From the sequence record NC_001416.1: a stretch of 48,502 nucleotides of DNA; one strand, written 5' to 3'. The notes under the pieces are model-generated. The model was not told the origin of the DNA, made no database searches, and saw only the letters and a list, made by a program, of their open reading frames with translations. Positions 22,686 to 24,508 of the stretch are shown one piece after another; positions within the stretch are counted from its first letter, which is position 1, and the number at the start of each line of letters is the position of its first letter. Both the position numbers and the translations under genes were made by a program. The DNA comes from Escherichia phage Lambda.

Positions 22686-23918
22686 TCAATTGTTCATAGT
22701 GTTTACATCACCGCCAATTGCTTTTAAGACTGAACGCATGAAATATGGTTTTTCGTCATGTTTTGAGTCTGCTGTTGATATTTCTAAAGTCGGTTTTTTT
22801 TCTTCGTTTTCTCTAACTATTTTCCATGAAATACATTTTTGATTATTATTTGAATCAATTCCAATTACCTGAAGTCTTTCATCTATAATTGGCATTGTAT
22901 GTATTGGTTTATTGGAGTAGATGCTTGCTTTTCTGAGCCATAGCTCTGATATCCAAATGAAGCCATAGGCATTTGTTATTTTGGCTCTGTCAGCTGCATA
23001 ACGCCAAAAAATATATTTATCTGCTTGATCTTCAAATGTTGTATTGATTAAATCAATTGGATGGAATTGTTTATCATAAAAAATTAATGTTTGAATGTGA
23101 TAACCGTCCTTTAAAAAAGTCGTTTCTGCAAGCTTGGCTGTATAGTCAACTAACTCTTCTGTCGAAGTGATATTTTTAGGCTTATCTACCAGTTTTAGAC
23201 GCTCTTTAATATCTTCAGGAATTATTTTATTGTCATATTGTATCATGCTAAATGACAATTTGCTTATGGAGTAATCTTTTAATTTTAAATAAGTTATTCT
23301 CCTGGCTTCATCAAATAAAGAGTCGAATGATGTTGGCGAAATCACATCGTCACCCATTGGATTGTTTATTTGTATGCCAAGAGAGTTACAGCAGTTATAC
23401 ATTCTGCCATAGATTATAGCTAAGGCATGTAATAATTCGTAATCTTTTAGCGTATTAGCGACCCATCGTCTTTCTGATTTAATAATAGATGATTCAGTTA
23501 AATATGAAGGTAATTTCTTTTGTGCAAGTCTGACTAACTTTTTTATACCAATGTTTAACATACTTTCATTTGTAATAAACTCAATGTCATTTTCTTCAAT
23601 GTAAGATGAAATAAGAGTAGCCTTTGCCTCGCTATACATTTCTAAATCGCCTTGTTTTTCTATCGTATTGCGAGAATTTTTAGCCCAAGCCATTAATGGA
23701 TCATTTTTCCATTTTTCAATAACATTATTGTTATACCAAATGTCATATCCTATAATCTGGTTTTTGTTTTTTTGAATAATAAATGTTACTGTTCTTGCGG
23801 TTTGGAGGAATTGATTCAAATTCAAGCGAAATAATTCAGGGTCAAAATATGTATCAATGCAGCATTTGAGCAAGTGCGATAAATCTTTAAGTCTTCTTTC
23901 CCATGGTTTTTTAGTCAT
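22686..23918 (-). CDS. ea47: Ea47, b-region protein of unknown function
   Basis: ORF track 22686..23945; start taken at MTKKPWERR (23918); low-GC; no motif recognised by eye. Confidence 0.85.
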   Translation of the reverse strand: MTKKPWERRLKDLSHLLKCCIDTYFDPELFRLNLNQFLQTARTVTFIIQKNKNQIIGYDIWYNNNVIEKWKNDPLMAWAKNSRNTIEKQGDLEMYSEAKATLISSYIEENDIEFITNESMLNIGIKKLVRLAQKKLPSYLTESSIIKSERRWVANTLKDYELLHALAIIYGRMYNCCNSLGIQINNPMGDDVISPTSFDSLFDEARRITYLKLKDYSISKLSFSMIQYDNKIIPEDIKERLKLVDKPKNITSTEELVDYTAKLAETTFLKDGYHIQTLIFYDKQFHPIDLINTTFEDQADKYIFWRYAADRAKITNAYGFIWISELWLRKASIYSNKPIHTMPIIDERLQVIGIDSNNNQKCISWKIVRENEEKKPTLEISTADSKHDEKPYFMRSVLKAIGGDVNTMNN

Positions 23919-24508
23919 AAAACTCTCCATTTTGATAGGTTGCATGCTAGATGCTGATATATTTTAGAGGTGATAAAATTAACTGCTTAACTGTCAATGT
24001 AATACAAGTTGTTTGATCTTTGCAATGATTCTTATCAGAAACCATATAGTAAATTAGTTACACAGGAAATTTTTAATATTATTATTATCATTCATTATGT
24101 ATTAAAATTAGAGTTGTGGCTTGGCTCTGCTAACACGTTGCTCATAGGAGATATGGTAGAGCCGCAGACACGTCGTATGCAGGAACGTGCTGCGGCTGGC
24201 TGGTGAACTTCCGATAGTGCGGGTGTTGAATGATTTCCAGTTGCTACCGATTTTACATATTTTTTGCATGAGAGAATTTGTACCACCTCCCACCGACCAT
24301 CTATGACTGTACGCCACTGTCCCTAGGACTGCTATGTGCCGGAGCGGACATTACAAACGTCCTTCTCGGTGCATGCCACTGTTGCCAATGACCTGCCTAG
24401 GAATTGGTTAGCAAGTTACTACCGGATTTTGTAAAAACAGCCCTCCTCATATAAAAAGTATTCGTTCACTTCCGATAAGCGTCGTAATTTTCTATCTTTC
24501 ATCATATT

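Follow-up and report, generated by a model that had tools for sequence, protein, structure and literature searches.

Several described systems resemble the locus of ea47, a minus-strand gene of Escherichia phage Lambda (sequence record NC_001416.1; the window below means this whole stretch of 48,502 nucleotides (nt), and positions refer to it). Like lambdoid morons, ea47 is a single gene of foreign composition between conserved phage genes and is apparently expressed from the prophage; its foreign guanine-plus-cytosine (GC) content and its presence or absence between tfa and a hairpin element were seen, and its promoter is a by-eye candidate only. The gene of PD-T4-3, a single-gene GIY-YIG system of PADLOC-DB, has the same arrangement as ea47, namely one minus-strand gene downstream of tfa with direct hairpin copies on either side, and the two cassettes stand side by side in E. 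coli M37H. However, PD-T4-3 is a GIY-YIG nuclease of 257 amino acids (aa), unrelated to the 410-aa, putatively HEPN-like Ea47. The Septu-like (PDC-M01) genes ea59 and ea31 of lambda are neighboring cargo of the b-region hotspot, on the same strand as ea47 and of similarly low GC, but they form a separate cassette beyond the hairpin element and do not co-occur with Ea47 outside lambda. HEPN domains are four-helix bundles in which an insert separates helices 2 and 3, and their Rx4-6H motif runs from the end of helix 3 into the next loop, with a polar residue, usually Asn, after the Arg (Anantharaman et al. 2013, PMC3710099). What is already known of ea47 and of its Pfam family PF26900 is names only, and our literature search returned no function for Ea47 or PF26900 and no described hotspot distal to tfa.

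ea47 was found to be an independently mobile single-gene cassette, apart from the Septu-like ea59–ea31, and we hold this with high confidence. The gene is bracketed by direct hairpin repeats of ca. 36 nt, since the hairpins HP1 and HP2 (Table 1) lie on either side of it. HP1 starts 15 nt past the stop codon of tfa and ends 78 nt beyond the stop codon of ea47; its stem, of 12–13 base pairs, is interrupted by a bulge of one nt, and its loop is GTATGAAAT. In E. coli M37H and E. coli GF153, neither of which has ea31/ea59, ea47 is 99% identical to the lambda gene, and the matches end at window positions 24195 (M37H) and 24256 (GF153). The gene orders are tfa′-HP-Ea47-HP-GIY-YIG (PD-T4-3-like)-HP-lipase in M37H and tfa-HP-Ea47-HP-DinI-prfC in GF153. 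An IMG/VR contig (L192) also carries tfa-HP-Ea47-HP followed by other genes, with a 99%-identical ea47 and no ea31/ea59. On the other hand, phage DE3 retains part of ea59 and lacks ea47. The AT-rich leader at 23919-24160, which holds the candidate promoter, is part of the ea47 cassette.

An earlier note on this DNA had described ea59–ea31 as an ATPase-nuclease pair, had proposed ea47 as a possible partner of that pair, and had suggested a co-occurrence check. The description of the pair is borne out by PADLOC matches: ea59 (25396-26973, minus strand, 525 aa) matched PDC-M01A (E = 4e-201) and the PtuA model (E = 5e-184), and ea31 (24509-25399, minus strand, 296 aa) matched PDC-M01B (HNH; E = 6e-113). 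Judged from these profiles, lambda ea59–ea31 is a Septu-like PtuA/PtuB pair and a candidate two-gene defense module. For the co-occurrence of these genes with ea47, 80 genome loci with Ea47 relatives were fetched, and 19 lambda copies among them were set aside as contamination. When ea59 and ea31 were searched by tblastn against 91 loci, matches were obtained in the 100%-identical lambda copies only, and no PtuA/PtuB homologue was found within 10 kb of Ea47 in ca. 60 non-lambda loci. The proposed partnership thus failed this check, with shared presence confined to lambda copies and 99%-identical ea47 genes occurring without ea31/ea59; we consider with high confidence that ea47 is independent of ea59/ea31.

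When ORFs (open reading frames) of 80 aa or more lying up to 10 kb from Ea47 in the 59 true loci were clustered, no conserved neighbor emerged; the commonest neighbor family occurred in 6 of the 59 loci and integrases in four. Among ORFs of 25–120 aa within 600 nt of Ea47 homologues, none was conserved across loci. A toxin-antitoxin module with a cryptic antitoxin was ruled out, as there is no conserved small adjacent ORF in this size range and distance. The homologue in Vibrio adjoins an integrase at a prophage end, that in Citrobacter lies at the edge of a Mu-like prophage, and that in a lambdoid prophage of Cronobacter dublinensis (L094, 8001-9233) lies in the nin region between P and ninB. 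The last is located in the nin region and not in the b region, so the family uses several prophage accessory slots. In Pectobacterium, the homologue occurs in an island with FRG, AbiTii, DUF5677, and UvrD; in Shewanella, it stands beside RloB and an AAA_15/21 ATPase; and in Aeromonas, it is a lone insertion among housekeeping genes (glyoxalase gene/enolase). Among 110 sampled neighbors, the recurrent Pfam families were resolvase, phage integrase, GmrSD, AAA_15/21, and TIR, and most of the neighbors were unique.

Two further observations were made on these loci. The 19 lambda-sequence loci (L012-L020, L023-L027, L029, L031, L051, L055, and L056) are 95–100% identical to lambda, mostly 100%, and lie on low-coverage contigs labeled Chromatium, Leeuwenhoekiella, Pseudomonas, Neobacillus, Oceanobacillus, and others; further labels on such assemblies are Streptomyces, Fusobacterium, and Vibrio. 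Lambda DNA in these unrelated assemblies is almost certainly contamination of public genomes by lambda control DNA. Additionally, a pair of genes encoding 371/374 aa and 584/576 aa, of which the larger matches SMC_N weakly, was found beside Ea47 homologues in differing orientations in Vibrio parahaemolyticus (L001, 9483-12349) and a Sphingomonadales bacterium (L087, 11361-14257). This pair may be another mobile two-gene system.

The minus-strand ORF at 22686-23945 encodes 419 aa from ATG 23945 or 410 aa from ATG 23918. Its GC is 0.314 (0.36, 0.31, and 0.27 at the three codon positions) versus 0.499 in the whole window, and that of tfa is 0.49. A run of 419 codons without a stop has a chance probability of 3e-16 at the ORF's own base composition, in which stops are frequent; therefore, chance in AT-rich DNA does not explain the ORF. 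The sequence GGAG, a Shine-Dalgarno (SD) sequence at 23925-23928, lies six nt upstream of ATG 23918, and no SD was found upstream of ATG 23945. Ea47 homologues are mostly 404–420 aa long and align from the Met of the 410-aa form, and PHROG 19262 matches residues 10–419 of the 419-aa form. Because of the SD placement, the N termini of the homologues, and the extent of PHROG 19262, the start at 23918 is preferred, and a start at 23945 appears unlikely. The AT-rich minus-strand ORF with two candidate starts, as the earlier note had it, is therefore present with its start narrowed to 23918, and the note's view of a horizontally acquired accessory gene agrees with the foreign composition (GC 0.31) and with the independently mobile cassette. 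A consensus promoter scan made no call at 23970-23997, because the −10 hexamer there does not end in T; the arrangement TTGACA-16-TATCAC at this place is a candidate ea47 promoter by inference only. An intrinsic-terminator scan of the ea47 region made no call.

The note had also called ea47 an orphan, which is no longer tenable. A word-indexed search gave 454 Ea47 relatives, and the 120 listed all carried the precomputed label PF26900 (Phage_lambda_Ea47); Ea47 itself was assigned to PF26900 via these labels on homologues of 99–73% identity, since the local Pfam copy was without this model. An exhaustive hidden Markov model search gave 1318 clusters (50% identity) at E ≤ 1e-3 and 851 at E ≤ 1e-10. 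The hosts include Citrobacter, Vibrio, Shewanella, Pectobacterium, Aeromonas, Cronobacter, many beta- and alpha-proteobacteria, and a few members of other phyla; the family is mainly found in Proteobacteria. The family is conserved over its full length. Across an alignment of 103 members, which extends down to 23% identity, Y24, R42, W78, R83, D91, S96, and W152 are invariant, and 22 further residues are kept in at least 90% of the members, including R9, P27, R31, T45, Q49, K52, N84, K88, G90, R150, E161, H274, K301, E325, W327, and E347. In the P0001 cluster (809 member sequences), ea47 is 99% identical throughout. Because invariant and conserved residues persist down to 23% identity, this conservation pattern points to a functional protein, probably an enzymatic or ligand-binding one.

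An AlphaFold2 model of Ea47 from a 55-sequence alignment had a predicted local distance difference test score of 89 and a predicted template modeling score of 0.88. Most of the invariant residues (Y24, R42, W78, R83, and D91) fall in the N-terminal helical domain (Table 1). The predicted helices may form a four-helix up-down bundle of the HEPN kind, with an additional helix (residues 58–70) between helices 2 and 3, and, as in HEPN domains, an invariant Arg followed by Asn stands at a helix end before a loop, with a second conserved position five residues on. In Ea47, this R-N-x3-K motif is followed by the loop G90-D91-L92. Among the 103 members, R83 is present in 103, N84, the polar residue after the Arg as in HEPN, in 99, and position 88 is Lys in 100 and His in three. 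The His members read ARVTIVHKGDL and ARTQVVHRGDL, i.e., Rx4H. Nothing else hints as strongly at a variant HEPN active site as this K/H exchange, which falls exactly where Rx4H has its His. The C-terminal α/β region, in which K301, E325, W327, and E347 are further near-invariant residues, may be a regulatory or sensor module. The HEPN toxins and abortive RNases (HepT/MNT, 7ae2; SO_3166, 5yep; AbiV, RnlA, PrrC, and Csm6) resemble Ea47 in their conflict-system context and in being stand-alone, whereas Ea47 is without an MNT antitoxin or other partner and has a 320-aa C-terminal region whose fold has no known relative. That Ea47 works like a HEPN effector is possible but somewhat short of an even chance in our estimate, and Ea47 is not filed as a HEPN member because no profile method tried ties it to a HEPN family. 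The earlier statement that no catalytic motif is recognizable is softened by the invariant R-N-x3-K at the HEPN Rx4H position.

Other database searches gave little. A Pfam scan of lambda Ea47, with the local copy that was without PF26900, gave just a sub-threshold vRNAP_dom (E = 0.035), and Foldseek against viral structures gave weak matches to uncharacterized proteins only. PDB profile matches to AdcR, the C-terminal domain of HIV integrase, and a surface protein were judged spurious.

In several distant relatives of 575–917 aa, a SEC-C zinc motif comes after the full Ea47 domain, at residues ca. 450–470, and the longer of these proteins (847–917 aa) add TPR repeats, some of which match the TPR-S “sensor” model. 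Three of these (P0238, P0181, and P0266) resemble the sensor-effector fusions of conflict systems that are independent of nucleoside triphosphates, in that they are lone genes with an N-terminal Ea47 domain, SEC-C, and TPR/TPR-S; P0238 is a lone gene adjoining groESL. Unlike these fusions, lambda Ea47 has no repeats, and any sensing would sit in its own C-terminal region. Single-protein immune sensors usually have an effector at the N terminus and sensor repeats at the C terminus, and by this analogy the fusions support an effector role of Ea47.

The ORFs located up to 3 kb from the hairpin could be grouped into 90 clusters. PD-T4-3 (PADLOC E = 3e-140) lies between two hairpins in the same slot layout as ea47, and other cargo includes PDC-S06 (E = 0), PtuA/PtuB pairs, PD-T7-1, PD-T7-5, PDC-S15, and PDC-S31, together with a SIR2/ThsA-like protein, mad3, mad6, and a type II restriction-modification pair. 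This slot position raises the prior for a defense role of ea47 and does not prove one. Across loci L096-L225, the hairpin, which has a tail of up to 195 nt, separates direct-orientation single-gene cassettes (Ea47, PD-T4-3, a 334-aa protein, and a lipase). Recurrent cargo without a PADLOC match was also observed, encoded at L162 1789-2790 (the 334-aa protein, which is likewise flanked by two hairpins), L185 2575-3774 (400 aa), L177 3297-4391 (365 aa), L218 5753-6880 (376 aa), and L120 13241-14521 (427 aa); these proteins are candidates for additional functions.

“Ea” names derive from early proteins observed after infection, and since the name marks an early protein, ea47 is also read from pL. 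CRISPR interference mapping showed that ea47, ea31, and ea59 are non-essential and that ea47 is non-essential for lytic growth (PMC10695390). In a microarray analysis, ea47 was among five lambda ORFs whose transcripts were at least 2-fold up in lysogens (Chen et al. 2005, PMC1151598). This suggests that ea47 is transcribed in lysogens and fits a gene serving the lysogen. The yeast two-hybrid pairs U-Ea47 and N-Ea47 (PMC3224144) were set aside, U being among that paper's own promiscuous baits.

We regard as evenly balanced the reading that Ea47 is a stand-alone, prophage-borne cassette protein acting as a conflict (anti-phage/abortive-infection) effector with a HEPN-like N-terminal site, and we lean slightly toward ea47 being a conflict or defense gene of some kind. 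A defense role is favored because of the defense-rich hotspot, the hairpin slot shared with PD-T4-3, and the TPR sensor fusions. Of the “separate defense or anti-defense function” that the earlier note had suggested, defense is best supported by this hotspot, slot, and fusion evidence, and anti-defense is less likely. Several results weigh against the reading as a conflict effector with a HEPN-like site. Lys replaces the catalytic His of Rx4-6H in 97% of the members; PDB profile searches with three alignments, including one of the N-terminal domain alone, gave no HEPN match; hmmscan of Ea47 and the 103 members against Pfam gave no HEPN family; and the members scanned singly showed no recurrent Pfam family. 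NCBIfam gave no match to Ea47, PADLOC-DB v2 (5027 models) gave no family at E ≤ 1, and the literature search found no experimental Ea47 phenotype on record. Moreover, many Ea47 neighbors in other bacteria are housekeeping genes, the hotspot also holds non-defense cargo (sitABCD, NleG7, and, in the K-12 Qin prophage, ynfT-ydfK, of which ydfK is a cold-shock gene), and the early-lytic naming of ea47 also fits a counter-defense role.

Some of these points can be turned into support for a lysogenic-conversion or physiology moron, e.g., a regulator, nucleotide-binding protein, or stress factor with no link to phage conflict: the tfa-distal hotspot also holds metal-uptake, type III secretion system effector, and cold-shock genes, Ea47 matches no defense model, and the HEPN histidine is absent. 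This explanation is nevertheless unlikely, as the commonest neighbors across Proteobacteria are resolvases, integrases, GmrSD, AAA_15/21, and TIR, relatives have the TPR-S sensor-fusion architecture, and the patchy single-gene insertions are typical of selfish or defense cargo. Ea47 could instead be a counter-defense or host-takeover protein made early from pL in lytic growth. Its orientation places ea47 in the leftward early unit downstream of int, ea59, and ea31, which pL read-through presumably enters, it is dispensable on laboratory K-12, as anti-defense genes are, and the yeast two-hybrid hits to N and U, set aside above, would also fit. However, homologues are often chromosomal without nearby phage genes (the Aeromonas glyoxalase/enolase insertion and the TPR fusion by groESL), the TPR-S sensor fusion is typical of immune effectors, the slot is held in common with PD-T4-3, restriction-modification, and Septu-like defense cargo, and the ea47 transcript is apparently present in lysogens, which together make counter-defense quite improbable.

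Two other explanations can be given hardly any weight. That Ea47 is a third component (regulator or effector) of the Septu-like module would agree with its adjoining ea59/ea31 on the same strand in lambda and with the strong matches of these genes to PDC-M01A/PtuA and PDC-M01B/HNH. This idea is largely refuted by the co-occurrence data, i.e., the absence of PtuA/PtuB within 10 kb of Ea47 in the ca. 60 non-lambda loci, the 99%-identical ea47 without ea31/ea59, and the partial ea59 of DE3 without ea47; in addition, the conserved hairpin element lies between the two units. A decaying or functionless passenger ORF is similarly remote. The ea47 DNA is AT-rich, and we know of no ea47 phenotype from decades of b-region deletion work, but the ORF is intact against a chance of 3e-16, is 99% identical across the 809 member sequences of P0001, and has seven invariant and 22 conserved residues as well as a good SD.

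For the favored reading of Ea47 as a conflict effector, the following mechanism can be proposed. The ea47 cassette occupies the variable slot that, in lambdoid prophages, lies between the gene for tail-fiber assembly and the attachment site, and the 410-aa cytoplasmic protein would work alone, to the benefit of the lysogen. The active site of the HEPN-like N-terminal domain would consist of R83-N84-x3-K88 plus R42, Q49, and K52, and would bind, and probably cleave, RNA or another phosphate-containing substrate. The C-terminal α/β region, predicted to have a novel fold, would hold Ea47 inactive until an infection cue is sensed, and the SEC-C and TPR sensor repeats would extend this sensing role in some relatives. 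The data show a real gene of a conserved family that is independent of ea59/ea31, has a cassette structure, and sits in a defense-rich slot, and we infer the defense role, HEPN homology, RNase chemistry, and autoinhibition of Ea47. That Ea47 acts on RNA through a HEPN-like site with Lys in place of His, under the gating of its C-terminal region, is held with lower confidence, at less than an even chance.

HP2 forms the left end of a GC-richer island, and the gap at 23946-24508 with such an island that the earlier note reported is real, with GC 0.50 over 24150-24420. The island has GC 0.51 over 24161-24356, versus 0.30 (23919-24160) and 0.41 in its flanks. Of the 5426 complete E. coli genomes searched by blastn with 24100-24480, 5388 gave matches, the median number of copies being three; the copies, all of them unannotated, share a sharp end at window positions 24159-24169 and have nested right ends between 24197 and 24365. 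The island had no Rfam match. The idea of the island as a structured RNA was dropped in view of this, a whole-island fold z-score of −1.3, and covariation confined to the terminal hairpin.

An IMG/VR pattern scan that used the loop and inner stem only retrieved at least 120 stretches, and in these prophages the hairpin is typically located 10–25 nt past a tfa ORF of 190–200 aa. The outer stem, which was outside the scan pattern, still pairs, with compensatory A-T to G-C changes in seven and C-G to T-A changes in six unique sequences. Pairing was observed in 281 of 312 cells versus 260 ± 3.3 in shuffled data, and none of 1000 shuffles reached the observed value. Since the sequences are related, this stem covariation is supportive rather than conclusive. 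Several hairpins are hybrids with the 5′ arm of one type and the 3′ arm of another, and in E. coli M37H the junction of the ea47 cassette with the next cassette falls inside the hairpin; both point to exchange within the hairpin repeat. Plain homologous recombination between copies of the 36-nt repeat would account for the exchange equally well. The hairpin may serve as a terminator, for which, however, a convincing U-tract is absent, as an RNA-stability element, or as a recombination site.

A short plus-strand ORF was observed at window 24140-24206, many copies of which end in P-Q-x-R-R-M-Q-E-R-A-A-(A/V)-G-W-stop, and the Prokaryotic Genome Annotation Pipeline sometimes names this spot a “capsid protein” fragment. 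Because some copies have in-frame stops yet keep the stem, the conserved feature here seems to be structure and not coding.

The lambda-slot cassettes resemble integron cassettes in that they share one orientation, each is followed by a conserved imperfect hairpin, and junction hairpins are hybrid. They differ in that no IntI-type gene occurs in the annotated contexts, where only a lambda-type integrase and Pin invertases were seen. With hairpins in direct orientation but no IntI, the elements are not counted as integron cassettes. That the 36-nt hairpin is an attC-like site of an undescribed cassette-exchange system and Ea47 a lysine-variant-HEPN abortive-infection nuclease gated by a novel fold is, taken as a whole, rather unlikely.

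The features of the ea47 region are collected in Table 1. Within tfa, Rfam RF02111 (IS009, a candidate E. coli small RNA) is matched over its full length at 22316-22514 on the plus strand (217.7 bits, E = 4e-54), in the 3′ part of the gene.

Table 1 Features of ea47, its cassette, and its predicted domains in the window.
Feature	Positions	Strand	Remarks
ea47 coding sequence	22686..23918	−	410 aa + stop; member of Pfam PF26900 (Phage_lambda_Ea47)
N-terminal helical domain, residues 1–92 (predicted)	23643..23918	−	Helices 5–22, 27–50, 58–70, and 74–89
R83-N84-T-I-E-K88 motif codons, putative active site	23655..23672	−	End of helix 74–89
C-terminal α/β region, residues 93–410 (predicted)	22689..23642	−	Near-invariant S96, R150, W152, E161, and H274
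Candidate ea47 promoter	23970..23997	−	TTGACA 23997-23992, 16-nt spacer, TATCAC 23975-23970; read by eye
HP1, left cassette boundary	22572..22607		Local blastn and sequence reading
HP2, right cassette boundary	24161..24196		Repeats HP1 in direct orientation (83% identical over 35 nt)
Long form of the hairpin element (GC-richer island)	24161..24356		GC 0.51; non-coding, widespread in lambdoid prophages

The breadth of the family, the independence from ea59/ea31, the R-N-x3-K motif, the TPR fusions, and the hairpin cassette shared in kind with PD-T4-3 appear to be new, and the array of hairpin cassettes has the best chance of being something undescribed. Lambda is the reference temperate phage, and ea47 has stood without an assigned function for half a century; the gene can now be put to direct test as a possible new single-gene immune system. 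The hairpin cassettes raise the question of their mode of exchange. If the attC-like interpretation were true, one-gene immune cassettes such as those of Ea47 and PD-T4-3 would be assembled into arrays downstream of tfa by the exchange system. The hairpin-delimited array is a defined, searchable hotspot, and its mining could yield further defense genes.

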